Below, in pieces: positions 5,931 through 61,928 of a stretch of 64,000 nucleotides of DNA. Both the position numbers and the translations under genes were made by a program. The DNA is from an uncultured Acidobacteriota bacterium (GTDB taxonomy: Bacteria; Acidobacteriota; Vicinamibacteria; Vicinamibacterales; 2-12-FULL-66-21), in assembly GCA_963774855.1 (NCBI GenBank), contig CAVZGT010000014.1, positions 508,892 to 572,891 on the forward strand. The letters run 5' to 3'. Under the pieces are notes generated by a model, which saw nothing but the letters and a program-made list of their open reading frames with translations, had not been told where the DNA came from and did no database searches. Positions within the stretch are counted from its first letter, which is position 1; each line of letters starts with the position of its first letter.

Positions 5931-7877
5931 ATGCGGTTGAGCATCAGGTGGCAGTTGGCGCTCGTCTCGGTGGCGTTGTCGCTGCTGCCGATCGCGCTCG
6001 CCGGCGTCCTCGCGTACCGGAGCGCGCGCGGGGCCCTCGAGGAGCGGATTCAGTTCAACCTCGAAACGCTCGCGTCGCTCAGCGCGGAGAAGCTCCAGCG
6101 TCTGCTGCTCGATCGCCACCAGGCCCTTCGCGGGTGGTCGCAGCTCGGCTTCCTGCAGGACGACACGGTCACCGGAGACACCGACGGCCGCATCCAGCAG
6201 TTCCTCGGCGAGGCCAAGCGCAATTTCGATCTCTATCAGGAAATCTGGGTGGCGAACGCGGCCGGGACGGTCATCGCCTCGACGCGTCCGGAGCTTCGCG
6301 GCCGCGAAATCGGCGATCGCGAGTGGCAGCAGGCGGCGCGGCGCGGCGACCCGTGGGCCGGCCTCCCCGGGCCGCAGGAGCTGACCGGACGCGTGGGCAT
6401 GCCGCTCGCGTTTCCCATTCGCGCGAGCTTCGATCGCGGCCGGACCGTCGGCGTCATCGTCGCCGTACTCGACTGGCCTTCCGTCGTCGAGATTCTCAAC
6501 GGCGTGAAGGTCGTGCCCGAAGGACAGAGCGAGCGCGGCTATCTGGTGCTGGCCGACTCGAGCGGCGTGCTGCTCAGCGCCCCCCCGTTCTTCACCGGCT
6601 GGCAGCCCGGGAAGACGGGCCTCAACTCGGTCGGGCTCGAGGCGATCCAGCAGCTGCCGGCCAGCGCGGCGGCGGGCAGCGCGACGTTCGACGTGCGCGC
6701 CGCCCCGTTTCTGGCGGGCTACGCCACGACGGAGCGCCAGCCGTACGTGCCGGGCACGTGGCGCACGGTGCTGCTGATGCGCGCCGACGTCGCCTTCGCG
6801 CCGCTGCGGCGGTTGATGTGGACGATCATCGCCCTGTCGATCGTGCTCGCGACCGCGGCGGCCGCCGGCTCGGTGTACTGGGCGAACCAGTTCTCGCGCC
6901 CGATCGAATCGCTCGTGCCGTTTCTGCGCGGCGTCGCCGCCGGCGATCTCTCGCAGAGCTTCCAGGTGGCGCGCCACGACGAGCTCGGCATGCTCGCCCA
7001 GGCCGCCAACGACATGTCCGGGAAACTCCGCGGGCTCATCCAGGAGCTGCAGAAAGCCGGGCTCCAGATCACGTCGGCGTCCACGCAGATGCTGTCGGCC
7101 GCCGAAGATCACGCATCGGGCTCGGTCCAGCAGGCCGCCTCGATCGCCCAGGTCACCGCGACGATGGAGGAGCTGACCGACACGGCGAAGCAGATCGCGC
7201 AGAGCGCGACATCGGTCGAGAAGATCGCCGACGACAGCGCGAACGCGGCGCACGCCGGGTACGACTCGGTCAACGAAGCCCTCGGCGCGATGGAGAAGAT
7301 CCGCCGGCGCGTGGCGGACATCTCCGGCAAGACGCTGCTGCTCGGCGAGCGCTCGCAGCGCATCTCGGAAGTGCTCAACCTGATCAAGGAAATAGCCGGC
7401 GAGATTCACCTGCTCGCGGTCAACGCCGCGATCGAGTCTGCCGCCGCGGGCGAGCACGGCAAGCGCTTCGCCGTCGTCGCCGGCGAAGTCCGCCGGCTGG
7501 CCGAGCGGACCCGTGAATCCGCGGAAGAGATCAAGGGGATTGTCGGCGAGATCCAGTCGGCGACGAACACGTCGGTGCTGGCGACGGAGCAGGGCGTCAA
7601 GGAAGTGGAGAACGGCGTGTCGCTGGCGACGCGCGCGCGCGGCAGCCTCGAGGAGATCCTGCAGATGGTCGATCGGACGACGCAGGCGATCCGCCAGATC
7701 ACCTTCGCCACGCAGCAGCAGCGCAGCGCCAGCGAGCAGATCGTCCAGACCATGCGGGAGGTGGCCGAGGTCACCAAGCAGACCGCCGCCGGGATGAAGC
7801 AGTCGGCGAGCTCCGTCGCCGATCTGAACGGGCTGGCGGACCAGTTCAAGATGCGGATCCGGGAATTCAGACTGTAG
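5931..7877 (+). CDS. methyl-accepting chemotaxis protein with periplasmic Cache-like sensor and HAMP
   Basis: TM1 ([21 protein letters not shown]), a ~270-aa periplasmic domain, TM2, HAMP ([21 protein letters not shown]), and a signalling domain with [35 protein letters not shown]. Intact. Confidence 0.9.
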
Positions 7878-8448: not shown

Positions 8449-8467
8449 TGATCAGCGGAAGCGATGT

Positions 8468-8538
8468 AACAGGAGTTCAGGAGGTCAGGAGATTCATTCT
8501 TGAAAACAGGAAAACTCCTGATCTCCTGATCTCCTGTT
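8468..8538. repeat. word-repeat hairpin (ATCAGGAG / CTCCTGAT family)
   Basis: Left arm is AACAGGAGTTCAGGAGGTCAGGAGAT and right arm is AACTCCTGATCTCCTGATCTCCTGTT. Arms are 26 nt with 3 mismatches and a 19-nt loop. Period 8 nt. Confidence 0.8.
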
Positions 8539-8563
8539 TAAAGACAAGCGCTGGGTTGACGCC

Positions 8564-10796
8564 ATGAACACACTCGACACGACCGCATTCATCGGCAAGT
8601 TCGTCGAGGAGGCCCGGGATCGCCTGAAGGGGCTGACGGCCGCCGTGCTGCGCCTCGAGGAAGTGCCGGGCGCGCAGGATGCGATGGCCGAGGTGCTGAG
8701 GCAGGGACACAACCTGAAGGGCTCGGCGCGCATGCTCGGGCTCCTCGACATCGCGCAGGTCGTGCACCACCTCGAGGAAGTGTTCGTGGCCGCGCAGCAG
8801 GACGCGCGGCGGCTCGACGCCGTCGCCTTCGACGTCGTCCTCAGTACCGATTGACGCGCTGTCGATCCGCGTGGAGCAACTCGCGAGCGGGATCGGCACG
8901 CCCCCGGACGTCTCCGCGCTGTGCCGGACGCTCAGCGGCCTGGCGGCGGGCCCGGTGCGTGCCGCGCAGGACGGCGCAGCCCCTGCCACGCCGGCGGATG
9001 CGGCATCCGGGCCGGCGCCGCAGGCGCCCGGGTCCGTGCGGCAGTCGCTCCGCGTCCCGGTGGAAAAACTGGACGGCCTGACGCATCTCGCGGCGGAGCT
9101 GGTCATCCAGAGCCTCAAGGCCTCGCAGCGGCACGTCGAGCTGCGCCGTCTGGATACCGCGCTCGGCCGGCTGCGCGATCGCGCGCGTGAAGCGCGCCTC
9201 GCGCCCGCCGCCGCAGCCGGCGCCGGCCCCGCCTTCGGCGAGTACGCCGAAGCGCTGGAGCAACTCAGCCGGCGCCTCCGGCAGTTCTGCGGCGAGTTCA
9301 GCGACGATCGGGTGCGCCTCAACCTCATCACCGAGGAGTTCCGGCAGAACGTGATCAGCCTCACGATGCTGCCGCTGCACACGGTGTTCGACGCCTTCCC
9401 GCGCGCCGCGCGCGATCTCGCGCGGCAGTTCGACAAGGAAGTGGAGGTCACGATCAGCGGCCGTGAGACGGAGCTCGACAAGAAGATCATCGAGCAGATC
9501 TCGGATCCGCTGATTCACCTGGTGCGGAACGCGATCGATCACGGCATCGAGCGCCCGGCCGAGCGGCTTCGCAAGGTCAAGCCGGCCGCGGGCCAGCTCC
9601 TGATCTCGGCGGAGCAACAGGGAAACCGCATCCTCATTTCCGTCCGCGACGACGGCCGGGGCATCGATCCCGAGGAGCTGCGCGCCGCGGCGATCCGCCG
9701 CGCGCTCGCGCCCACCGCGGATCTGGAGCGCTGGAGCACGGCGGAGCTGCTCGAACTCGTCTTCCAGCCCGGCTTCAGCACGCGCGCGTCCACCACCGAC
9801 GTCTCGGGGCGCGGCGTCGGGATGGACGTCGTGAAAAACGTCGTCGTCCGGCTGGGCGGATCGGTGCGCATCCATTCCGAGCCGGAGCACGGGACCACGG
9901 TCGTCCTCGATCTGCCGTTGTCGCTGGCGCTCCTGCGAGTCGTGCTGGTCGAAACCGGTGACGAGCTGTTCGCGCTGCCGACGGCGTCGGTGCGCCGGCT
10001 GCTGCACGTCAAGCCCGAGGACATCCTCGCGGTGCCGGGCGGACACGCGATCGATCTGGCCGGCGAGACGATTCCGCTGACGTCCCTGAGCGTGCTGCTC
10101 AACGGATCGGCAGGGCCGGTCGCGGCGCGTCAGCCGGTGCTCGTCGCGCGTGCCGGCGAGGCGTCCTTCGGTCTGCTCGTCGAGGCGGTGCACGAGGAGC
10201 AGGAGCTCGTCTTCGAGGAGCTGCGCCACCCGCTGCGCGAGCACCGCACGTTTGCCGGCGCCGCCATCCTGGGCAACGGCGACATCGTGCCCATCCTCGA
10301 CGTCCACGCGCTCTTCGAGCTGGCCTCGCGGAAGCCGTCGATCCAGCCCGGTCCTCCGCCGGAGCGTCCCGCCGCCCCGCGCGTCGGACGCGTGCTCGTG
10401 GTCGAGGACTCGCTCGTGGCGGGCGAGCTCGAGAAGAGCATCCTGATCGCGGCGGGATACGAGGCCGAGATCGCGCACGACGGCGTGGAGGCGTTCGAGA
10501 TGCTCCTGCAGAAGCCGTGGGACCTGGTGGTCGCCGACGTGGACATGCCGCGGATGGACGGGCTGCAGCTCACGGCGCGGCTCCGGGCGGATGAGCGCTT
10601 CCGCAATCTGCCGGTCGTCATCGTCACCACGCGTGACTCGATCGAGGACCGCCGCCGCGGCTTCGACGTCGGGGCCGACGCCTACGTGCTCAAGCGCGAG
10701 TTCGATCAGAGCCACCTCCTCGACACGGTCAAGCGCCTCATCGGCCGCGCGCTGCCGGACGTCCCGGCCCCATTTCCCGGGCCGCCCGATGCTTGA
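8564..10796 (+). CDS. cheA: chemotaxis histidine kinase CheA with C-terminal receiver (CheA-REC), one frame break
   Basis: Hpt (HNLKGSARMLG), HATPase (HLVRNAIDHGIE...DDGRGID...SGRGVGMDVV), CheW-like domain, and REC (VLVVEDSLVAGE...VVADVDMPRMDG...AYVLK). One extra nt at about 8849: VVLST|IDALSIRVEQL. Confidence 0.9.
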
Positions 10797-23127: not shown

Positions 23128-23208
23128 AGCCTTGGCGGACCCGCCTACCCGAACGCGGGATAATGAAGGCGACGGAGGCAGCGGAGCGTTCAGCCAACGT
23201 CTTTTCAA

Positions 23209-23349
23209 CACGGAGGAACGGAGGAACGGAGGAACGGAGGAACGAATCCTTGATGTTTCTTTATTGAAGAGCAATTCTCCGTTGCTCCGTTTCTCCGTTG
23301 CTCCGTGTTAGATACCTCCGCTTTCTCCGTACCCTCCGGTATCTCGGAG
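23209..23349. repeat. word-repeat hairpin (CGGAGGAA / CTCCGTT family)
   Basis: (CGGAGGAA)x4 at 23211-23242 faces TTCTCCGTTGCTCCGTTTCTCCGTTGCTCCGTG at 23276-23308, with further CTCCG words to 23349. Lies between convergent genes. Confidence 0.75.
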
Positions 23350-24345: not shown

Positions 24346-24422
24346 CTCCAGCTTCCAGCTTCCAGCTTCCCGCTCCCCGCTTCCGAATCCCGAGTCCCGA
24401 ATCCCGAGTCCCGAGTCCCGAG
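24346..24422. repeat. two abutting heptamer arrays (CTTCCAG then GAATCCC/GAGTCCC)
   Basis: CTCCAG CTTCCAG CTTCCAG CTTCCCG CTCCCCG CTTCC, followed by GAATCCC GAGTCCC GAATCCC GAGTCCC GAGTCCC GAG. Lies in a divergent spacer. Confidence 0.8.
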
Positions 24423-24525
24423 CGTTCGAGAATACTTGGATTCGGTCCGAATTGGTGCGACGCTATCGGCTCGTCGCCAGGAACACCGCCCCGGCGAGGC
24501 GGTAGAGGACTCCAGGAGCTGACAG

Positions 24526-26219: not shown

Positions 26220-26228
26220 GACGGCCTT

Positions 26229-26334
26229 AACAGGAGGTCAGAAGGTCAGGAGGACATCCTTAACCCAAAGATCAAAACCTCCTGATCTCCTGATCTCCTG
26301 ATCTCCTGTTTAGGTTTTAGTCTCCTGATCTCTC
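26229..26334. repeat. word-repeat hairpin (ATCAGGAG / CTCCTGAT family)
   Basis: AACAGGAGGTCAGAAGGTCAGGAGGA faces CCTCCTGA TCTCCTGA TCTCCTGA TCTCCTGT (26276-26310). An extra TCTCCTGATCTCTC unit runs into the tldD stop. Confidence 0.8.
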
Positions 26335-30266: not shown

Positions 30267-30956
30267 ATGATCACGCGCGCGATCGCGATACTGACGCTTG
30301 CGTTGCTGGCGGCCCCGGCGGCGCGGGCGCAGGAGCAGAAGCTCACGACGTACTACCTCGTCGTGCTGCTCAAGGGGAAGGCCTGGACCGCGCAGGAATC
30401 GCCGGAGCGGACCAAGCTCCAGGAACAGCACATCGCGCACCTCACGAAGCTCGGCGACGAGGGCGCCGGGCTGGCGGCGGGCCCGTTCGGCGACGGCGGC
30501 GACATCCGCGGACTCCTCATCGTCGCCGCGAAGTCAGAACAGCACGCGCGCGAGCTCGAGGCCGCCGATCCGGCGGTGAAGGCCGGGCGGCTGGCGATCG
30601 ACGTGCTGCCGTTCATGGCCCCCGAAGGATGGTTCCACAAACCCGCGACCCCCTTCGCGATGGAGACGGTGTACTTCGTGTTCCTGAACGGCGGCCCCAA
30701 CCGCGCGCCGGATCCGGAGAGCGCGAAGCGCCTGCAGTCCGAGCACCTCGCCTACATGGACGCCCAGCACAAAGCCGGCCGCCTGATTCTCGCCGGCCCG
30801 TTCGTCGGCGGCGGGAGCCGCGCCGGCCTCGTGGTGTATCGCGCCGCCTCCGCCGACGAGGCGCGAGGTTGGGCGGCCGCCGACCCGATGGTGAAATTCG
30901 GCCGCCTCGAGGCCGAGATCCACGAGTGGTATCTCGCGAAGGGCGTGCTCAAATAA
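30267..30956 (+). CDS. tandem YciI-like (YCII) domain protein with signal peptide
   Basis: MITRAIAILTLALLAAPAARAQ, then two YCII units (HIAHLTKLGDEGAGLAAGPFGDGGDIRGLLIV...DPAVKAGRL and HLAYMDAQHKAGRLILAGPFVGGGSRAGLVVY...DPMVKFGRL). Confidence 0.75.
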   Translation: MITRAIAILTLALLAAPAARAQEQKLTTYYLVVLLKGKAWTAQESPERTKLQEQHIAHLTKLGDEGAGLAAGPFGDGGDIRGLLIVAAKSEQHARELEAADPAVKAGRLAIDVLPFMAPEGWFHKPATPFAMETVYFVFLNGGPNRAPDPESAKRLQSEHLAYMDAQHKAGRLILAGPFVGGGSRAGLVVYRAASADEARGWAAADPMVKFGRLEAEIHEWYLAKGVLK

Positions 30957-31024
30957 TCCCTAATCGCTAATCCCTGATCCCGCATCCCGCATCCCGAATC
31001 CCGAATCCCGAGTCCCGAGTCCCG
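30955..31024. repeat. perfectly phased 10 x 7-nt array (AATCCCT to AGTCCCG gradient)
   Basis: The units are AATCCCT AATCGCT AATCCCT GATCCCG CATCCCG CATCCCG AATCCCG AATCCCG AGTCCCG AGTCCCG. The array starts inside the TAA stop of the YciI-like gene. Confidence 0.9.
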
Positions 31025-39688: not shown

Positions 39689-40177
39689 GTGAACCTACGG
39701 CGCTTTGTCTTCGGTTCGCATCCCCGGCGCACGCTGGTGCGCGTGCTGGTCCTCGGGGCGTTGAGCTTCGCGATGTTCCGGTGGGTCCTGATGCCAATCC
39801 GCGCCGAAGGCATCAGCATGATGCCCACGTACCGCTCCGGATCGCTCAACCTCGTCAATCGCCTGGCCTTCGCGTCCAGCAAGCCGTCCCGCGGAGACGT
39901 CGTGGCGATCCGGCTCGCGGGACCCCACGTGCTGTACGTCAAACGCATCGTGGCGCTGCCGGGTGAGCGATTCTCGATGTCCCAGGGCCAGGCCTACGTC
40001 AACGGCGCTCCGCTCAGCGAGCCGTACGTGCAGGACCGCCGGCCGTGGGACGTGCCGGAAGTGACCTTGACACCACGCGAGTACTACGTCATCGGCGACA
40101 ACCGCGGAATGAGCGCCAGCGACCATGATTTCGGCCGCGTCGATGTCTCGCGCATCGTCGGCAAGGTCGTCTTTTGA
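39689..40177 (+). CDS. lepB: signal peptidase I
   Basis: GISMMPTY (catalytic Ser box), [17 protein letters not shown] (Lys box) and [19 protein letters not shown] start. Confidence 0.85.
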
Positions 40178-40659
40178 CGAGACGCCGCGGGCTGCAGGTC
40201 GGAGGCGTCGTCGCGCTGGCCGCCGTCGCGTTGTTCGTGTGGAGCCGCTGGGGGTCGGACGACGAGCGCGTCATTCGCGAGCGGATTGAAGCGCTGCGCA
40301 GCGAGGTGAACCGCTCCGCCGACGGCCTCGCCGCCATCTCCCGCGCGAACAATATCGGAAGCTACTTCACCGAGGACGTCGTGGTCGATCTCGGGCAAGG
40401 CGCCACGCCCATCCGGGGCCGCATGACGCTCATGGGGATGGCCGAGCGGCTTCAGCCGCGAACCGCCGCATTCCGCATGGAGTTCGACGACGTCGGCGTC
40501 GAGATGACGTCCGGCGCCGCAACCGCCGACGTCACGCTGACCGCGAGCTTCATACGGGGAAGCCAGACCGGAGAGGAATCGCGCGACGCCCGCGAGTTCG
40601 CGCTGGGCTTCACCAAGGCCGGCGGGACCTGGCGCATCGCGCACGTGACGGCGATAGAT
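40174..40659 (+). CDS. membrane-anchored SnoaL/NTF2-like (DUF4440-like) domain; no stop codon, reads through a repeat into the peroxiredoxin
   Basis: TTGA overlap with lepB. TM segment [14 protein letters not shown], then ...[17 protein letters not shown], a typical NTF2-fold end. The ORF stays open to 41187. Confidence 0.5.
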
Positions 40660-40660
40660 G

Positions 40661-40715
40661 TGTCTGAGATAGTCTCGGGTCTCGGGTCTTCGGTCTTGTC
40701 TTTGGTCTTTGGTGG
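40661..40715. repeat. GGTCTC/GGTCTT word array (complement of the GAGACC family), in frame
   Basis: The words are GTCTGAG ATAGTCTC GGGTCTC GGGTCTT CGGTCTT GTCTTT GGTCTTT GGTGG. They translate as [18 protein letters not shown]. Confidence 0.75.
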
Positions 40716-40722
40716 TGGACGA

Positions 40723-41187
40723 ATGTCTATACGCGTCGGCGACGAGGCCCCTGATTTCGAGTTGCGCAGCCATCGCGGCGGCACGGTCAAGCTGTCGGAT
40801 TTTCGCGGCCGGCAGAACGTGGTCATCGCGTTCCACCCGCTGGCGTTCACGCCCGTGTGCGAGGCCCAGATGTGCGGGTACGAATCCAATCTCGAGCGGT
40901 TCGCACGCGAGGGGGCGGCCGTCCTCGGCATCAGCATCGACGCGCAGCCGGCCAAGGCGGCCTGGGCGAAAGCCATCGGGCCGATCTCGTACGACCTGCT
41001 GAGCGACTTCCATCCTCACGGTGAGGTCGCGCAGCAATACGGCGTCTTCAGGCCAAAAGAAGGCTTCTCCGAGCGCGCGATCTTCGTCGTCGACAAGCAG
41101 GGGCGAATCGCCTGGTCGAAGGTCTACCAGATCCCCGAGCAGCCGAAGAACGACGAGGTGTTCGAGGCGCTCTCGAACCTGAGCTAG
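40723..41187 (+). CDS. peroxiredoxin (AhpE-like AhpC/TSA family)
   Basis: [51 protein letters not shown]... (peroxidatic Cys in FTPVC) and [15 protein letters not shown]. Confidence 0.85.
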
Positions 41188-46717: not shown

Positions 46718-47486
46718 TCAGGCGACGTGTCCGCCGATCAAGTAGAGCAGCGGAAACAGGAAGATCCAGACGATGTCGACGAAGTGCCAGTACAGGCCGG
46801 ACACCTCGACGGGCGTGTAGTAGTCGGCGTCGAACTGCCGCCGCCACGCCATGATCGCGATGACGGTCATGATCCCGAGCCCGATGACCATGTGCAGCGC
46901 GTGCAGCCCCGTCATGCAGAAGTACAGCGAGTAGAACATCTCCGCCGCGGCCGGATGGTTGCCTTCCCACACGAAGTTGGGGCCGGGGACGAGATGATGC
47001 TCGAACTTGTCGGCGTACTCGATGGCCTTGACGCCCAGGAACGCGATCCCGAAAAACATCGTCGCCGCGAGCCAGAACACCTGCGTCTTCGGCGGCGCGC
47101 TCGTCTGCGCGGCGCGCACCGCGAGCGCCATCGTCAGCGAGCTGACAATCAGGACGATCGTGTTGACGGCGCCCCAGACCACGTTGAGGTGATGGCTGGC
47201 CTCCGCGAAGCCCTCCGGCTCCGCCGTCCGGTAGACCAGGTAGCACATGAACAGGCCGCCGAAGAACATGATTTCGGTGACCAGGAACACCCACATGCCG
47301 AGCGTCGACGCCTCGGCCTGCTGCGCCATGTCGTCGAAATGGTGCTGCAGCTTCGGATGGTGCGCGACGTGTACCTCGACATGCCGCTCCCGGTGCACCG
47401 GCGGCTGGTGCATCGGGCCGGGATAGTGCTCGGAGGGGTGGCCCTCCGAAACTCCCGACCTGCGGTAGTGGTCGGACGGGCGGCCC

Positions 47487-47494
<8 letters not shown>
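46718..47494 (-). CDS. ctaE: cytochrome c oxidase subunit III
   Basis: [32 protein letters not shown]...[23 protein letters not shown] 47494 overlaps the ctaD end. An alternative ATG is at 47413. Confidence 0.85.
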
Positions 47495-49089
<1,595 letters not shown>

Positions 49090-53989: not shown

Positions 53990-54000
53990 GGCTCACGCGC

Positions 54001-55403
54001 TCAGTGCGCCTTGCCTCCCCTCACCTTGGCGGCGGGCACGACCGTGCGCATCTCGAAGATCGAGATCATCGGCAGCACCCGGATGAACAGGAAGAAGAGC
54101 GTGACGAACAGCCCGATGCTCCCGAAAAACGTCATCCAGGTCCCACCGCGTCGGCCAGTACATGCCCCACGACGAGGGCAGGAAGTCGCGGTGCAGGCTC
54201 GTGACGACGATGACGAAGCGCTCGAGCCACATCCCGACGTTGACGACCATCGAGATGAGGAACAGCTTGATCGGCGAGGTCCGCACCGACTTGATCCAGA
54301 GGAACTGCGGCGTGACGATGTTGCACAGGATCAGCGTCCAGTAGAACGGCCAGTACGGGCCGGTCATCCGGTTCAGGATCATGTACTCCTCGTAGCGGTT
54401 GGCGCTGTACCAGCCGAAGAACGCCTCCATCACGTAGCCGTAGCCCACCATCAGGCCGGTGACGAGCATGACCTTGCCCATGTTCTCCAGGTGCCGCATC
54501 GTCAGGAAATCCTGGAGGTTGTACAGGACCCGCAGCGGAATCGCGAGCGTCAGCACCATCGCGAACCCGGCGTAGATCGCGCCGGCGACGAAGTAGGGCG
54601 GGAAGATCGTCGCGTGCCAGCCGGGGATGATGCCGATCGTGAAGTCGAAGCTCATGACCGTGTGGACCGACAGGACCAGCGGCGTCGAGAGGCCGGCGAG
54701 CAGCAGGTAGGCCGATTCATAGCGCTCCCAGTGCCGGGCCGATCCGCGCCACCCGAGCGCGAGCATGCCGAAGAGCCGGCGGATGTGCAGGCTCTTCGCG
54801 CGATCGCGCAGCGTCGCGAGATCGGGCACGAGCCCGACGTACCAGAACAGGAGCGAGACCGTCAGGTACGTGGAGACCGCGAAGAGGTCCCAGATGAGCG
54901 GGCTGCGGAACTGCGGCCAGATCCCCATCGTGTTGGGGTACGGCACCAGCCAGTAGGCCGCGAGCCACGGACGGCCGGTGTGAATCAGCGGGAAGATGCC
55001 GGCGCAGGCGACCGCGAAGAGCGTCATCGCCTCGGCGAACCGGTTGATCGACGTGCGCCAGTCCTGTTTGAGGAGCAGCAGGATCGCCGAGATCAGCGTC
55101 CCGGCATGGCCGATGCCGATCCACCAGACGAAATTGATGATCGCGAAGCCCCAGCCGATCGGGACGTTCACGCCCCAGATGCCGGTGCCCTTGATGAGCA
55201 GCCAGGTGATCGACATCAACAGGACCATGCACAGGTTGAAGCCGATGAACAGCCCGAAGACCCAGCTCCACGGATGGCGCCGGGTGAGGACGATCGCGGC
55301 GATCTGCTCGGTGACCGAGGCGAACGTGTGCCCCGGCTCGATCACGCGGCGGCGGGTTGTAGTCGTCGTCCCGCCTCGGGTCGTTGTCGTCGCGGTTGGC
55401 CAT
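54001..55403 (-). CDS. actC: Alternative Complex III subunit ActC (NrfD-like quinol-interacting membrane subunit), two frame breaks
   Basis: The ATG overlaps the actB stop (TGATG). [60 protein letters not shown]... Frame changes at about 55345 and 54137. Confidence 0.8.
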
Positions 55404-58400
55404 CAGTGTTCTGTCGTCGAAGCGGCCGGTGCCGGTTCCAGCTCGGGGTTCGGGTTCCGCAGCGCCGCGAGATACGTGGTCCGCGGGCGCGTGTTCAGGT
55501 CCTCGAGCACGCCGTAGTTGCGCTGTTGCGCCTTGAGCTTCACCACCTGGCTCGATCGGATCGTTCAGATCGCCGAAGACGATCGCGTCGGAGGGGCAGA
55601 CGGCCTGGCACGCCGTGACGACCTCGCCGTCGCGGATCTTCCGGTCCTCGCGCTTGGCGTCGATGCGCCCCTGGTTGATGCGCTGCACGCAGTACGTGCA
55701 CTTCTCCATCACGCCGCGGCTCCGCACCGTGACGTCAGGGTTGCGCAGCGGCTCGAGGCTCGGCGTGGTCCAGTCCTGATACAGCAGGAAATTGAAGCGG
55801 CGCACCTTGTACGGACAGTTGTTCGAGCAGTACCGGGTGCCGACGCACCGGTTGTAGACCATGTCGTTCAGGCCTTCCGAGCTGTGCGTCGTCGCGGCCA
55901 CTGGACAGACGGGCTCGCACGGCGCGTTCTCGCACTGCATGCAGGGCACGGGCTGGTGGTACGCCGCGACAGGCTGGCCGCTCTCGAGGTCCGACTCCTC
56001 CCCCGCGAAGTAATGATCGACGCGAATCCAGTGCATCTCGCGTCCGGCCGCGACCTGCTCCTTGCCGACGACCGGGATGTTGTTCTCGGCCGTGCACGCC
56101 ATCGTGCACGCGCCGCAGCCCGTGCACGAGGAGAGGTCGATCGCCATGCCCCACTTGTATCCCTCGTAGGGACGGTCGGGGTACATCGTGAGCGTCCGTG
56201 GAAAGTTGTGCACCTGATGCTGGATGACGGCCGGCTCGTGCGTGTACTGCTCGAGCGTCGCGACCCGGATGGGCACGCGTCCTTCCATCAGATGGTGCTC
56301 CTGCGTCGTCGCGAGCAGGTAGCGATCGCCGGTCTTCGAGATCTCGAGGCCGCTGCCGAACCACGGGGCGTCGGAGGTGCGAAGGAGGTAGGCGTTGAAC
56401 GCCTCGGCGCCGGCCGTGGCAGTGCCGACCCGGCCGGCCATGACGCCTGCCGTAGCCGAGAAACACCGTGACGGACTGCGCGGGATGGCCGGGGACCCGG
56501 AACACGGGCATGCGCGCGGTGTTGCCGCGATAGCGCAGCTCGATCACGTCGCCGTCGCTCAGGCCGCGTTCCCTGGCGAGCTGCGGGCTGATCCACGCCG
56601 ACGGGTCCCACGTGATCTTCGTCAGCGGCTTGGGCAGCTCCTGGAGCCAGCCGTTGTTCGCGAAGCGGCCGTCCCAGATCGTCGGATCGGGCCGGAAGAT
56701 GATCTCGAGCGCTCCCTGCGCGGCCGCGGACGGCGGCGCGGCGGCGCGGCGGCCGGGGCGGCGCCGCGGCGGCAGCGGCCGGCGCGGCCGCGGACGGCGC
56801 CGTGAACGGCGTGGCCTGTCCGCCGTCGGCGATCGCGGTGCCGCCGATGAACCCGTCGTGCAGGGCCCGGCGCCAGAACGTGTCGGCGTCCTTGAACGGT
56901 AGACCGTCCGCGCCGCGGATGGACCAACCGCTGGCCCCTCCGAACGCGCGGGTCCAGTAGTCCTTGACGATCTGGGAGCCGTGGCGATCCGGCTGCGCGG
57001 TGAACACGCCGAGCAGCTCGTGCGCCGATCGGCCCTCGTACAGCGGCGCAATCAGCGGCTGAATGATCGTGACCGTGCCGTCGTACGCGCGCGCATCGCC
57101 CCAGCTCTCGAGCGGATGGGCCTCGGCGACGTTCCATTGGCACAGGTTCGCCGTTTCGTCGACGTGCAGTCCGTGATAGACCGTCATGCCGACCTTCACG
57201 AGCTTCTCTGAGAATTTCAGGTCGGCGGGCGCGGTGTAGACGGGATTGCCGCCGAGGATGACGAGCAGCTCCACCTGTCCCGCGTCGATCGACCGCACGA
57301 GCTCGTTGAGCGATGCCGCCTGATCGGCCGGCGCCGCTTCGATAGCCGCCCCGTACGTGACCGTTGCGCCGACGTTGCCGAGCGCCTGGTTCATGGCGTG
57401 CGCGGCCGCGTGCACTGCCGCCGGCTGATAATCTCCCGCAACCACCAGGGATGTGCCCCGGTGCGCCTGAAGGTCTTTGGCGAGCGCCGCGACCCACTTC
57501 GCCGCGTCGGCGTTGGCCGGCTCGGGACTCGGGACTCGGGACCCGGGACTCGGAGAGCTTCCCGACCCTGCTCCGAGGCTGCCGGACAACTGGCGCGCAA
57601 ACCCCTCGATCTCTCCGGCCTTGAGCACGAGGCGGTGATCCGCCTTGGCGCCGGTCAGCGAGGGCGTGCTCTCGATCGCATAGAAGCGGTTCATCTCCTT
57701 GCGGTCGTCGGTGATCCGCCGGCGGGACGCAAAGTCCTTCTGGTACCGCACGCAGCCGGGGCCGCTGGCCAGGAAATCGGCGTCGAGCGACACGACGACG
57801 TCGGCCTTGTCGAAGTGATAGATGACGTTGGTCGGCGAGCCGCCGTCGCGAGCCGTGCGCCGTCGCGGGTGACCGGATCGTACTGATGCCACCGCGCCTG
57901 CGGGTTTTCCGTCAGGATTGTCGACAGCAAATCGGCGAGCGACGGGGAGGTGATCGGGCCGGTCAGGAACCGGAGCCCCGCTCCCTGCCGGGCCTTCTGG
58001 CTCTTCGCCGCCACCACCATGTCGCTGAGAAACTTGCCCCAGGGCCTGATCTCACTGCGGAAGGTAGTCGTCTGGGCGCGATCCGGATCGTACAGATCGA
58101 GGATGGCGGCCTGGGTGATCGCGTCGGTCGCGCCGAGGCTGGCCGGATGCTGGGGGTTGCCCTCAATTTTGGTCGGACGCCCCATATGGCTCTCGACCAG
58201 GACGGGCTGGGCGATGCCGGACAGCGGAATGGCGCTGGCGAAAAACAGGGGACGGCCGGGGACGATGTCCTCGGGCTGCTTTATATAAGGAACGATCTCT
58301 TCGGCCGGCTGTTTCGTGCACGCGCCGACCCCGGCGAGCGCGAGCGAGGCGCTCATGAGCTTGAGGAACTGCCGGCGGCCCTTCGGGTCGTTCCACTCGG

Positions 58401-58530
58401 ACGCCTGCTCGGGGAATTCCCGGTGCAGGTACTCGCGGAACTCCAGCGTGTCGGCCAGTTCGCCGAGGCTGCGCCAGTACATGCGGCCCTCGGCGCCGGC
58501 AAGACGGGATCGGATGACAGAAGGATCCAT
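55403..58530 (-). CDS. actB: Alternative Complex III subunit ActB (Tat signal, molybdopterin-oxidoreductase-like domain fused to 4Fe-4S domain), four frame breaks
   Basis: [20 protein letters not shown] Tat signal. [11 protein letters not shown]...[33 protein letters not shown], and Fe-S motifs [25 protein letters not shown] and [12 protein letters not shown]. Frame changes at about 57848, 56715-56790, 56445 and 55555. Confidence 0.85.
57519..57558. repeat. GGGACTC heptamer array inside the actB coding sequence
   Basis: GGCTCGGGACTCGGGACTCGGGACCCGGGACTCGGAGAGC is the complement of the GAGTCCC word found in intergenic arrays. It translates in frame as [15 protein letters not shown]. Confidence 0.7.
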
Positions 58531-58538
58531 GCTCAATT

Positions 58539-58639
58539 CAGCTACCAGCTACCAGCTACCAGCTACCAGCTTCCCGCAATCCGCTCCCGGCTTTTCGAGC
58601 TCCATGCTGGAAGCTGGAAGCTGGAAGCCGGAAGCTACC
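58539..58639. repeat. word-repeat hairpin (CAGCTAC/CAGCTTC versus GGAAGCT) filling the actA-actB spacer
   Basis: (CAGCTAC)x4 plus CAGCTTC faces GCTGGAAGCTGGAAGCTGGAAGCCGGAAGCTACC, with a regular A-A mismatch every 7 nt. The right arm includes the actA stop. Confidence 0.85.
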
Positions 58640-59294
58640 TATGGCATGTCGAGCAGCTTGTCAGCTGTTCGACGCTCGCGACCTTGTACGCCTCGACGAG
58701 ACGCTTGCCGAAGTCCCGGTCGCCGGCCGGGCGCTCCCACGCCATGTTGAACACCTGATCGCGCGGGCGGATGTACTTCGCGGGATCGCGGTGGCAGTCC
58801 AGGCACCAGGACATCGTGAGCGGGGATTCCTGGTACATGAGGGGCATCCGATCCACCGGCCCGTGGCACGTGGCGCAGCCGACCCCTTGTTTCACGTGAA
58901 TACTGTGGTTGAAATACACGAAATCCGGCAGATCGTGGACCCTCGTCCAGCGCAGCGGCGTGTTGTCGCGGAAGCTGGCCCTGACCGGCTCGAGGATGGG
59001 CGCGGTGGCCCAGATCTGCGAGTGGCAGTTCATGCAGGTTTTCGTGGGCGGGATATTGGCGAAAGCCGACTCTTCCACGGACGTGTGGCAGTAGCGGCAG
59101 TCGATCCCCATGCCGCCGACGTGGTGGGCATGGCTGAACTGGACCGGCTGCTCGACGAACCGGTTCTGGCCGGTGTTGTAGCCGGACAGATGGAGCAGAC
59201 CGACCGAGGTGCCGAGGACGGCCACGAACCCTACCGCCGCCAGAATGCTGAGCCGGGAGTAGATGTTCGCGTAGCGATGGAAGATCTGACTCAT
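58635..59294 (-). CDS. actA: Alternative Complex III subunit ActA (penta-haem cytochrome c)
   Basis: N-terminal TM anchor and five CxxCH sites (CRYCH, CMNCH, CATCH, CLDCH, CSTCH). ATG at 59292-59294. Confidence 0.85.
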   Translation of the reverse strand: MSQIFHRYANIYSRLSILAAVGFVAVLGTSVGLLHLSGYNTGQNRFVEQPVQFSHAHHVGGMGIDCRYCHTSVEESAFANIPPTKTCMNCHSQIWATAPILEPVRASFRDNTPLRWTRVHDLPDFVYFNHSIHVKQGVGCATCHGPVDRMPLMYQESPLTMSWCLDCHRDPAKYIRPRDQVFNMAWERPAGDRDFGKRLVEAYKVASVEQLTSCSTCHR

Positions 59295-59429
59295 CGTGTC
59301 GACGTCCGCGCCAAGTTCCCAAGAGCCTACTCGAAACCGGGGTATTGCAGAAGCGGACAGCGCCGCCGCGCAGGCCGGCGGGCAGGGCCGGCGCCGACCC
59401 CGGGACCGTTCATCGCTCGTCACTCATAA

Positions 59430-59445
59430 TGTGAAACTATTCACA
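59430..59445. promoter_or_regulatory. perfect Crp/Fnr-family palindrome TGTGA-N6-TCACA
   Basis: TGTGAAACTATTCACA lies in an AT-rich patch of the divergent spacer, about 136 nt upstream of actA and about 85 nt upstream of the ABC-2 ATPase gene. Confidence 0.45.
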
Positions 59446-59469
59446 AAGTGTCAAATGCGCGGAGCGTTG

Positions 59470-59519
59470 GCTAAAGTTCTAAAGTTCTGAAAGTTCGAAT
59501 GTTCTACAGTCTCTAATCG
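59470..59519. repeat. AAAGTTCT word array (complement of AGAACTTT)
   Basis: The sequence is GCTAAAGTTCTAAAGTTCTGAAAGTTCGAATGTTCTACAGTCTCTAATCG. Confidence 0.5.
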
Positions 59520-59529
59520 AATTGGAGCG

Positions 59530-60419
59530 ATGACCGAGCCATCGTCCTGCGCGGCGTCACCAAGCGGTTCGACGGGACCGTGGCCGTGAACGATCTCTCG
59601 CTCACCGTCCCCACGGGCTCGATCTACGGCTTCATCGGCCCGAACGGCTCCGGCAAGACGACGACGCTCAGGATGATCATGCACATCCTGCTGCCCGACG
59701 AAGGGCAGATCGAGGTCCTCGGGTCGAGCGACACCGCCGCGGCGCGCGATCGCGTGAGCTACCTTCCCGAGGAGCGCGGGCTCTACAAGAAGATGACGAT
59801 TCGCCGTCTGCTGCGGTACTACGCCCGCCTCAAAGGCGGATCGCGCAGCCGCATCGACGCGGCGATCGACGAGTGGATGGCGCGGATGGAGCTGCCGGGG
59901 CTGCTCGATCGGCAGATCGAGACGCTCTCGAAGGGGATGTCGCAGAAGGTCCAGTTCATCGCCGCGGTCGTCTCGGACCCGGCGCTGCTGATCCTGGACG
60001 AGCCGTTCTCCGGCCTCGACCCCGTCAACGCCCAGGTGCTGAAAGACGCGGTGCTCGAAATGCGGCGCCGCGGCGCCACGGTCGTCTTCAGCACGCACGA
60101 CATGGCGACCGCCGAGCGCATGTGCGATCGCATCTTCATGATCTTCCGCGGCCGGAAAGTGCTCGACGGGTCGCTCGAGAGCATCCAGGACCAGTACGGC
60201 GCCGACACCGTCCGGATCCGCACGTCGGCCGGCGCCGCCGCGCTCGCCGGCATGCCGGACGTGGAATCGGTCAACGACTTCGGCCAGCTCCAGGAAGTGC
60301 GTCTCAAGGGGGATCCGCAGGCGTTTCTCTCGCGCCTCGCCGCGCGCACGGCGATCTATCACTTCGAGGTCACGCGCCCGTCGCTGCAGGACATCTTCGT
60401 GCGGATTGCCAAGCCGTAG
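59530..60419 (+). CDS. ABC transporter ATP-binding protein (ABC-2/NatA-like), frame break at codon 4
   Basis: GGAG then ATG 59530 (MTE), with 1 nt missing at about 59540. Then IVLRGVTKRFDGTVAVNDLSLTVPTGSIYGFIGPNGSGKTTT, LSKGMSQK and LLILDEPFSGLD. Confidence 0.85.
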
Positions 60420-60597
60420 GAGACAGGAGTCAGGAGACAGAATTCAGGAGACAGGAGGCAGGGGTGGCAAACCGTACCTAGCGTCCGGCTTCAGCCGGAC
60501 CAAGGCGGTTGGAAGATTGCACGAGACAGGAGACCGAAGACCGGAGACCGAAGACCTGAGACCGAGACCGAAGACCTGAGACCTGAGACCTGAGACC
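60419..60597. repeat. purine-rich GAGACAGG/GAGACC word arrays flanking a TTCA-loop hairpin
   Basis: 60419-60462 is GGAGACAGGAGTCAGGAGACAGAATTCAGGAGACAGGAGGCAGG. 60483-60500 is GTCCGGC-TTCA-GCCGGAC. 60523-60597 is GAGACAGGAGACCGAAGACCGGAGACCGAAGACCTGAGACCGAGACCGAAGACCTGAGACCTGAGACCTGAGACC. Confidence 0.75.
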
Positions 60598-60617
60598 CCT
60601 GGCGCTCTGGAGCACCC

Positions 60618-61928
60618 ATGCGCAAGATCCTGATCGTCGCCCAGTCGGAATTCGCCACGCTCGTCCGCAGCAAGGCCTTCATGGTCAGCATCGTGCTGAT
60701 GCCGGTGATCATGGTGCTGTCGGTGGTGCTCATGCGCGCGACGAAGAACGCCACCGACGGCAAGGACCGGACGTTCGCGTTCGTGGACTACACCGGCGTC
60801 CTCGGCGAGCAGCTCGTCGCCGTGGCCCAGGTCCTGAACGCGGGCTCCGGCGATCTCGCCGATCCACAGGCGCTGCGGACCACGCCGCGCTTCATCCCGG
60901 TCGAAGTCAAGCCGGACGGCCGGCCGCCCGAAGCCCTGCGCCTCGAGCTCTCCGATCGCGTCCGCCGCCAGGAGCTGTTCGCGTTCGTCGAGCTGCCCGA
61001 GAACCTCCTGGATCCCGCCGGCAAGGCGCAGATCCGTTACTACTCCGACCATCCGTCCTACAACGCGCTGTCGATGTGGCTGCGGGTGACCGTGAACGGG
61101 CTCGTCCTGAACGAGCGGTTCCGGCGGGCCTCGATCGATCGCGCGCTCGTGGCGCGGCTCACGCGGCAGGCGCCGGTCGAGAACCTCGGCCTGTTCGAGC
61201 GCGACGCGGCAGGGACGGTGAAGCAGGCCGAGGAAGTCGACCAGGTCCGCGCCCAGGGCGTGCCGCTGGCGATGCTCGTCCTGATGTACATCACCGTGAT
61301 GTCGAGCGCCCCGCAGCTCCTCAACAGCGTCATCGAGGAGAAGATGAGCCGCATCAGCGAGGTCCTGATGGGCGCGATCACGCCGTTCCAGCTGATGATG
61401 GGGAAGCTCATCGGCAGCGTCGGCGTCTCGGTGCTGCTGGCCGCCATCTACATCGCCGGCGGACTCGTCGTCGCGCAGTACTGGGGCGGCTACGCGAGCG
61501 CCGTGACGCCGGGCGCGCTCGCCTGGTTCACGTTGTTCCTCGTGATGGCCGGGCTGATCTTCGGCTCGATCTTCATCGCGATCGGCGCAGCGTGCAACGA
61601 CCTCAAGGACACCCAGAGCATGGCCACCCCGGCGATGGTGCTCGTCATGCTGCCGATGTTCACGTGGATGTCCGTGCTGCGCGCGCCGGACGGCATGACC
61701 GCGGCAGTGCTGTCGATCATCCCGACCGCGGCGCCGTTTCTGATGATGCTGCGCATCTCGCTGCGGCCCGGCCCGCCGGCGTGGCAGATCGCGCTCTCGA
61801 TCGCGCTCATGGCCGGCACCGTCGTCCTCGCCATCTGGGCCGCGGGGAAGGTTTTCCGGACGGGACTGCTGATGCAGGGGAAGTCGGCCACGATGGCGGA
61901 GATGTTGCGGTGGGTGAAGGCCAAATAA
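60618..61928 (+). CDS. ABC-2 type transporter permease (NatB-like, large extracytoplasmic loop)
   Basis: N-terminal TM segment, a ~170-aa loop, then 5 TM segments with EEKMSRISEVLMGAITPFQLMMGKLIG. Intact, 436 aa. Confidence 0.8.
   Translation: MRKILIVAQSEFATLVRSKAFMVSIVLMPVIMVLSVVLMRATKNATDGKDRTFAFVDYTGVLGEQLVAVAQVLNAGSGDLADPQALRTTPRFIPVEVKPDGRPPEALRLELSDRVRRQELFAFVELPENLLDPAGKAQIRYYSDHPSYNALSMWLRVTVNGLVLNERFRRASIDRALVARLTRQAPVENLGLFERDAAGTVKQAEEVDQVRAQGVPLAMLVLMYITVMSSAPQLLNSVIEEKMSRISEVLMGAITPFQLMMGKLIGSVGVSVLLAAIYIAGGLVVAQYWGGYASAVTPGALAWFTLFLVMAGLIFGSIFIAIGAACNDLKDTQSMATPAMVLVMLPMFTWMSVLRAPDGMTAAVLSIIPTAAPFLMMLRISLRPGPPAWQIALSIALMAGTVVLAIWAAGKVFRTGLLMQGKSATMAEMLRWVKAK

Follow-up and report, generated by a model that had tools for sequence, protein, structure and literature searches.

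A heptanucleotide tandem array in a variable loop of actB from an uncultured Acidobacteriota bacterium

Known repeat systems and the actB array

In phase-variable contingency loci, e.g. the tetranucleotide repeats in Haemophilus or the CTCTT pentamer in Neisseria opa, tandem units that are not a multiple of three nucleotides (non-3n) are located within an open reading frame (ORF), and the gain or loss of one unit shifts the frame. Such loci tend to lie near the 5' end of genes for surface proteins, antigens or restriction-modification systems. A further class are long simple sequence repeats (SSRs), i.e. microsatellites with at least three head-to-tail copies of a 5-11-nt unit above chance. 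According to Mrazek, Guo and Shah (2007), as related in PMC4679880 and PMC4692102, among the long SSRs of free-living bacteria with large, high-GC genomes heptamers are the most frequent, and they are put down to polymerase slippage. By the same accounts, the vast majority of long SSRs lie between genes, and any that are located in genes should have 3n units. Every genic tandem repeat of the Borg elements is built from units divisible by three and gives rise to a disordered region (PMC9879509). Heptamer repeats of the GGGNATC type form G-quadruplexes (G4) in Xanthomonas and Nostoc, and these heptamers are under-represented in ORFs (PMC4692102). Here we describe a heptamer array in a 64-kb stretch of DNA from an uncultured Acidobacteriota bacterium (64,000 nt of contig CAVZGT010000014.1, referred to as the window). 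The array is located inside actB, the gene for subunit B of alternative complex III (ACIII). With a probability of about 0.68 we consider it to be a heptanucleotide microsatellite which formed in situ in an already variable, permissive loop of ActB.

The array is at window positions 57517-57553 and has about 4.7 tandem 7-nt units with the word GAGTCCC on the minus strand, the coding strand of actB. After a partial unit the coding strand reads GAGTCCC GGGTCCC GAGTCCC GAGTCCC GAGCCGG (57551-57517); the plus strand reads CTCGGGA CTCGGGA CTCGGGA CCCGGGA CTCGGAG. Tandem Repeats Finder (TRF) delimited it to 57521-57553 (period 7, 4.7 copies, 92% matches, score 59). Eight period-7 arrays with a TRF score of at least 50 were present in the window, compared with none in 60 dinucleotide-preserving shuffles. 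Therefore, the array is far above chance expectation and not an effect of composition, and it qualifies as a long SSR. A first-pass annotation of this DNA had reported a heptamer array in frame inside actB. The array is real and the reading frame runs unbroken across it within an ORF piece from 56288 to 57892, but actB as such is not a single ORF in the assembly. The translation of the array and its two flanks of ordinary ActB sequence were as given in that annotation.

The array word had also been equated with the complement of GAGTCCC in two intergenic arrays (24383-24422 and 30955-31024), and this was borne out. The sequence GAGTCCCGAGTCCC occurs exactly at 24406(+), 31010(+) and 57524(-), with ten matches at up to two mismatches against 1.44 expected. 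An 18-mer is identical at 24406-24423(+) and 57520-57537(-); none was found in 100 shuffles. Eight of the ten GAGTCCC words in the window are within these three arrays. Roughly a dozen heptamer arrays occur in the 64 kb, three of them with this otherwise rare word. The shared word is the only remaining link of the actB array to the intergenic arrays.

The actB array belongs to the SSR kind. With the long SSRs of Mrazek, Guo and Shah (2007), as far as PMC4679880 and PMC4692102 describe them, it has in common a 7-nt unit in few copies, an array-rich, high-GC, free-living host, a proposed origin by slippage, and a copy number and word that differ among relatives. It departs from their intergenic pattern and is unusual in that the unit is non-3n, that it lies in frame well within a conserved respiratory gene, and that different species have arrays of differing words at this one site. 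The non-3n unit in an ORF, where one unit more or less shifts the frame, is shared with contingency loci. Yet the actB array is mid-gene in a housekeeping subunit of a respiratory complex, the host is free-living, and on/off alleles are hypothetical. The conserved length of the loop across actB lineages points to selection against frame-breaking states, not to their use. Similar to the Borgs, a genome-specific burst of repeats affected intergenic and genic DNA. In Borgs, however, genic units are divisible by three, give perfect amino-acid repeats and encode fast-evolving, disordered P/S/T-rich segments, often in exported proteins (PMC9879509). In actB the 7-nt unit produces an imperfect peptide repeat, in which three units correspond to one period of 7 aa; the array overwrites a loop that was already there and does not create a new region. 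Lastly, the array resembles the GGGNATC and GGGGA(C/T)T heptamers of Xanthomonas and Nostoc (PMC4692102) as a G3-tract heptamer (GGGACTC, GGGATTC on the complementary strand), with four tracts in the window and in one relative. As in those genomes, the G-rich tracts are on the strand opposite to the coding one.

The ActB loop and its arrays in relatives

The B1 fragment of ActB from the window was modelled with AlphaFold2 (AF2; 108-sequence alignment, mean predicted local distance difference test (pLDDT) 88.3). The top Foldseek hits of the model were 8k9e_B, 9ilt_B, 6lod_B, 6f0k_B and 6btm_B (E 2.5e-28 to 7e-15). The fold is thus that of the molybdopterin-oxidoreductase-like B1 domain, in agreement with the molybdopterin-like domain named in the first-pass annotation. 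The B1 domain has no cofactor bound and no assigned function (PMC7439408). In model numbering a helix (70-83) is followed by a 22-residue coil (84-105) and a second helix (106-121). The pLDDT over the coil in blocks of ten residues was 82, 65 and 77. The array-encoded residues 92-103 are wholly within this lower-confidence coil between two confident helices. The DNA coding for the loop extends from 57512 to 57577 on the minus strand. Because the segment is modelled as a coil with low confidence and is hypervariable in all orthologues, we infer that it is a surface loop. The loop of solved ActB chains is 5-7 residues shorter than that of the relative L017 (see below).

A variable G/A/S/P-rich stretch, preceded by the motif EIEGFAR.L, was present at the array site in every one of 26 aligned homologues. 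Loop length was taken as the distance ADHRL...DLQAHRG in 67 genomic loci and 120 database proteins. It is 63 aa in the window, 62 in L016, L002 and L003, 59 in L017 and L098, and 58 in L097. Elsewhere in the clade it is 57-62 aa (72 in L001/L021), and in the majority of distant Acidobacteria 46-55 aa, with a few at 69. L002, L003 and L097 were called repeat-free and have a loop which is equivalent in size to that of the window. Thus, the array does not add net sequence as an inserted or mobile repeat element would. An insert is ruled out by the equivalent G/A/S/P segment of like size in orthologues without the word repeat, the very observation which the first-pass annotation had named as evidence against its own proposal. 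It had described the array as a Ser/Pro linker inserted into ActB. The segment is indeed a Pro/Ser/Gly coil between two helices, but it is not an insert. Nor can we uphold the proposal that an intergenic word repeat had colonised actB: the loop pre-exists at like length, arrays with other words are at the same site in relatives, and an inverted partner is absent. The suggested route to protein length variation stands in so far as repeat content and loop length vary among relatives; this does not happen by way of an added insert.

Same-site repeats were found in several relatives. L011, with 94-97.5% nt identity to the window over 11 kb, has 3.4 perfect copies of GAGTCCC (GCTCTCC GGCC GAGTCCC GAGTCCC GAGTCCC GCCG AAC). 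L017 is on a short-read contig from JGI with 76% nt identity. It carries (CCCGGCT)x4.6 with 96% TRF matches (GGA TCCCGGC TCCCGGC TCCCGGC TCCCGGC AAC) within an uninterrupted ORF of 1063 aa. The arrays of the window and L017 share the codon phase, CCC GGN TCC CGN NTC CCG NNT CCC. In L098 (AGCGARG)x2.7 is located at the same site, directly before the conserved AAC GCG GAC. In L016, which is 88% identical, a decayed relic of five units in 7-nt phase remains (CCCAGT CCCGGCG CGAACGT CCCGGGA CCCGGCG); TRF detected nothing in this loop and the relic was recognised by eye and phase only. L097 has about two degenerate units, and L020 and L022 have a two-copy CCCCGAR at the array site.

The period-7 autocorrelation was 25/28 in the window and in L017, and 19 at most at any period in the other 65 loops. 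Units are more alike within arrays (identity 0.83 in the window, 0.93 in L017) than between the two (0.66), the flanks being 76% identical. A neighbour-joining tree of the flanks grouped ((window, L016), (L017, L097)), with L098 outside. The loop DNA of the window is 12 nt longer than that of L017, six on each side of a shared 27-nt core. Thus copy number and word change while units evolve together, as in microsatellite turnover: five units in the window compare with 3.4 in L011, and L017 has another word in the same phase, although exact lengths are uncertain due to assembly noise. Copy-number polymorphism was judged against L011 only, as a metagenome scan gave no same-species contigs. As read from these assemblies, the pattern is that of a microsatellite which would have been born, homogenised, shortened and lost in place.

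Origin of the array

We favour a microsatellite formed in situ because the loop pre-exists, relatives have arrays at the same site, units are more alike within than between lineages, and the array is located in a coil. The Vicinamibacteria-like Acidobacteriota lineage builds 7-10-nt tandem arrays very readily, though few of them are located in genes. Within genes they would be retained only at positions that accept any peptide, and only as long as the frame is kept. The helix-coil-helix loop of the cofactor-less B1 domain may be such a tolerant place. Replication slippage, possibly together with local template switching, would expand, contract and homogenise the units, and selection would remove frame-breaking states. 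The array would persist at one site across species, with word and copy number drifting. Loop length would remain about constant because whole-unit changes are offset by other small indels. The word would be of local origin, from an ancestral ...S-P-E-P... proto-repeat (CCC GAG CCC CGA); a second candidate for a proto-repeat is the conserved (S/R)VPxPG, coded GTC CCG NNN CCC GGN. The arrays may go back to one ancestral array or to repeated re-expansion from a proto-repeat.

Several observations weigh against an origin in situ. Purely local slippage accounts neither for the exact 18-mer nor for the fact that GAGTCCC is almost confined to three arrays; this requires that either the arrays converged on a favoured word or sequence was transferred. 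Lineages differ in loop length by 1-5 aa, which does not correspond to multiples of three units. Unit-wise slippage alone is therefore insufficient, and whole-unit steps were presumably offset by small indels. L016 is closer to the window than L017, yet its array is decayed; repeated re-expansion also fits this. In L011 the array region is 8 nt shorter than in the window and out of frame; over 5 kb of coding DNA this assembly has about 14 further 1-nt indels, each of them isolated. Finally, the evidence on the array is drawn from assembled sequences.

In the case of sequence transfer, an intergenic GAGTCCC array might have served as the source of units for the actB loop, with template switching or short-patch recombination taking place at the microhomology CCCGAG. 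The shared 18-mer and the use of one rare word by three arrays would be accounted for, and the wholesale replacement of intergenic arrays between about 95% identical genomes bears witness to a very active process. Nevertheless we consider such an import unlikely. There is no net insertion, as the loop lengths demonstrate. The words at this site in L017 and L098 were not seen in their own nearby intergenic arrays. CCCGAG(C) is already at the site in the more distant L020 and L022, so the word can be local. Eighteen bases are short for homologous recombination, and the actB array is devoid of the inverted partner which is typical of most intergenic arrays. One may go further and propose that a word-specific array-building process, which rewrites spacers within about 5% divergence, also writes GAGTCCC into the actB loop by template switching and leaves a hypermutable tract whose non-3n steps switch ACIII off and on. 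This is rather doubtful; if true, the shortened, out-of-frame state of L011 would be a genuine 'off' allele. A tract selected for its hypermutability or structure, either a contingency locus which switches ACIII by one unit more or less or a G4/i-motif that affects transcription or replication, appears improbable to us. A 7-nt unit within an ORF is how phase-variable genes are organised, a canonical G4 motif (GGGACTCGGGACTCGGGACCCGGG, one of nine in 64 kb) is located on the template strand, the L017 array also yields four G3 tracts, G4 formation is known for GGGNATC-type repeats (PMC4692102), and L011 is out of frame. However, the array falls near residue 330 of a protein of about 1060, whereas phase-variation SSRs concentrate near the 5' end (Lin and Kussell, as cited in PMC4692102), and the host gene is a housekeeping gene. 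The state of L011 is probably an error in view of its many other 1-nt indels. G4 potential, as predicted from the sequence, is not conserved: L011 has three C3 tracts and the L098 word none, which rules out conserved G4 potential as a general explanation. mRNA structure is not above background (z +0.35).

The assembly itself was a further concern, since the window evidently stems from a long-read metagenome-assembled genome (MAG), actB has four frameshifts, cheA is split, and of 36 gap events between the window and L011 in 6 kb four are inside the array. Yet the same word is in the independent assembly L011, a same-site heptamer array is in an intact ORF on the short-read contig of L017, and the frame continues into conserved ActB sequence on both sides of the window array. 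On the strength of L011 and L017 a consensus artefact appears ruled out for the existence of the array; the exact copy number is still uncertain. That the repeat or its copy number and frame derive entirely from consensus errors is thus very improbable. We attach even less weight to chance low complexity, in which GC-rich Pro/Ser/Gly linker codons mimic a 7-nt repeat. To be sure, the conserved (S/R)VPxPG codons already space CCCG 7 nt apart. But the shuffles contained no comparable arrays, the 7-nt period is out of phase with the codons, and 65 other loops of similar composition are without such periodicity.

With the in-situ microsatellite as the favoured explanation, a lineage-wide mutational habit, the formation of 7-nt arrays, would reach an essential, conserved gene by overwriting a tolerant loop and not by adding sequence. 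The outcome would be long-lasting with a turnover of word and copy number. The array may serve as a natural marker of permissive sites in ActB, here in a domain without known function. Repeats and frameshifts occurring together make this a cautionary case for the annotation of long-read MAGs. Should the tract be hypermutable in vivo, a free-living soil bacterium would, unusually, switch a respiratory complex in the manner of a contingency locus.

Host gene, operon and intergenic arrays

actB extends from 55403 to 58536 on the minus strand. It encodes a twin-arginine translocation (TAT) signal, the molybdopterin-like B1 domain, an Ala/Pro linker and the B2 Fe-S domain. Upstream in the operon is actA, a multihaem cytochrome c (58635-59423(-); Pfam Cytochrome_C7 and Cytochrom_c3_2), and downstream actC, an intact NrfD-type membrane subunit (53993-55402(-); Pfam NrfD, 1.5e-18). 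In the gene calls of L016 ActD comes next. The intact L017 orthologue (1063 aa) is matched by the ActB chains 8k9e_B, 6lod_B and 6f0k_B of the PDB with E=0 or 1.5e-263, and it carries the TAT-variant signal TIGR04519 (52.5 bits, cut-off 20.6). The window encodes the TAT-signal segment and the Cys-rich B2 segment, i.e. the combination of TAT signal and C-terminal four-cluster Fe-S domain of ActB.

A tblastn search with L017 ActB recovered five pieces (58530-57838, 57901-56801, 56718-56443, 56507-55557 and 55552-55406) in frames -2, -1, -2, -3 and -1, i.e. actB has four frameshifts. They cover residues 1-572 and 631-1063 of 1063, the gap being the Ala/Pro linker. A plot of GC content at third codon positions (GC3) tracks the frame switches. 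At the first site (57838-57853) the window needs one additional nucleotide. The second is in the GCG-rich Ala/Pro linker between B1 and B2 (56720-56800; TRF period 3, 27 copies). An extra base in AGGCGTCATGG marks the third (56441-56447) and an extra base in CCGATCGAGCC the fourth (55553-55560). P0001, the only exact protein match (100% identical), was called as a gene product of 468 aa on a contig of 1.93 Mb; this points to a long-read MAG as the source of the window. The related long-read contigs L016 and L011 each have their own set of frameshifts. Differences in actB at codon positions 1/2/3 were 2.8/2.8/12.8% against L011 and 4.4/3.3/19.4% against L016. Thus, actB is under purifying selection. 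Because substitutions are mostly at third positions and frameshifts differ among related assemblies, pseudogenisation was ruled out; we judge actB to be functional and its four frameshifts to be probable consensus errors. As actB has four frameshifts and cheA one, the assembly is noisy; therefore, the exact copy number of the array is uncertain and its in-frame state is that of the assembly only.

Indels of three related long-read assemblies cluster in the same approximately 20 nt of actB around GGCGCACGGCTCGCGACGG (window 57838-57853, L016 ~6010-6030, L011 ~5981-5991). The window and L016 each switch frame there, differently, and L011 is +1/-2 relative to the window. Base calling may be systematically wrong here, perhaps owing to a modified motif. 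The frame is lost just after the Ala/Pro linker in the gene calls of the long-contig homologues P0005, P0008, P0010, P0014, P0018, P0019 and P0027 and is kept past it in the short-contig homologues P0004, P0011, P0017 and P0029. The split of cheA on the plus strand separates an Hpt domain in ORF 8522-8854 from the dimerisation, HATPase, CheW and receiver domains in the overlapping ORF 8718-10796 in another frame.

The intergenic arrays of the window are of two types. Two single arrays on the plus strand share the word of actB. The array at 24383-24423, (GAATCCC/GAGTCCC)n, which shares the 18-mer, continues from (TCCAGCT)n at 24347-24384. The array at 30955-31024 begins at a stop codon and was defined by TRF and sequence. 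In both the word drifts stepwise: TCCAGCT > TCCCGCT > CCGAATC > CCGAGTC along 24347-24422, and TAATCCC > TGATCCC > GCATCCC > GAATCCC > GAGTCCC along 30955-31024. The actB array resembles these single arrays and not the paired ones, with which it has in common the unit length and the kind of short word. Complementary pairs of 7-8-nt arrays are located at 58530-58645(-), 23200-23315(+), 26225-26315(+) and 8465-8540(+), e.g. (ACGGAGGA)n...(CUCCGUUG)n. They fold into hairpins of 30-40 bp with periodic bulges (dG -44 to -65 kcal/mol, z -5.2 to -9.5). In the actA-actB spacer (58539-58636(-)) the pair (CUUCCAG)n and (GCUGGUA)n forms a long bulged hairpin of -61.6 kcal/mol. RNA folding gave z-scores of -5.15, -9.49, -5.97 and -8.97 for the four intergenic pairs and of +0.35 for 57500-57580(-). 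The actB array has no complementary partner nearby, and an mRNA-hairpin role was dropped as its folding is not above shuffles. A search of the whole window at Rfam gathering thresholds gave no match.

Intergenic arrays at 59445-59540 and 60440-60620 are replaced by unrelated words and lengths in L011 (4200-4400 and 3215-3295), while flanking genes are 94-97.5% identical; examples are (AGAACTTT)n versus (GTTCTCG)n...(AAGAACC)n and (GGTCTCA)n versus (CAGGAGA)n/(CTCCTGT)n. This implies that intergenic array turnover is extremely fast in this lineage. Because intergenic arrays are replaced in L011 and the actB array keeps its word there, the array-making process appears very active and the coding copy comparatively constrained. 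The intergenic arrays, which form paired hairpins and are exchanged completely at about 95% identity, strike us as more remarkable than the copy inside the gene.

Coding arrays were screened with six-frame ORFs and GC3. All arrays of 7-, 8- or 10-nt units in the window were intergenic by this screen except the actB array and one at 40672-40713. In 697 kb of loci the screen assigned two of about 50 non-3n arrays to coding DNA, the actB array of the window and an 11-mer in L004. Owing to its GC3 threshold it overlooked the L017 actB array, whose coding nature was recognised by inspecting the 1063-aa ORF. The GTCTCGG/GGTCTTT array at 40672-40713 encodes the linker in an ORF (40174-41184(+)) between a SnoaL_4 domain (aa 36-159) and an AhpC/TSA peroxiredoxin (aa 188-314) with a start codon of its own (ATG at 40724). 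This ORF may represent a true gene fusion; alternatively, an intergenic array happens to contain no in-frame stop, or the assembly has an indel here.

Nine canonical G4 motifs are present in these 64 kb of 67% GC DNA, seven of them inside tandem arrays (24396, 30979, 31007, 37233, 57524, 61929 and 62681). In the short-read L017, (CAGTTNC)n at 1088-1126 upstream of actA and (AACTGGA)n at 2128-2160 between actA and actB are reverse complements about 1 kb apart and bracket actA. A 42-nt unit is repeated 1.9 times at 47424-47503, just upstream of a cytochrome oxidase subunit III-like ORF, and gives a duplicated peptide in that frame.

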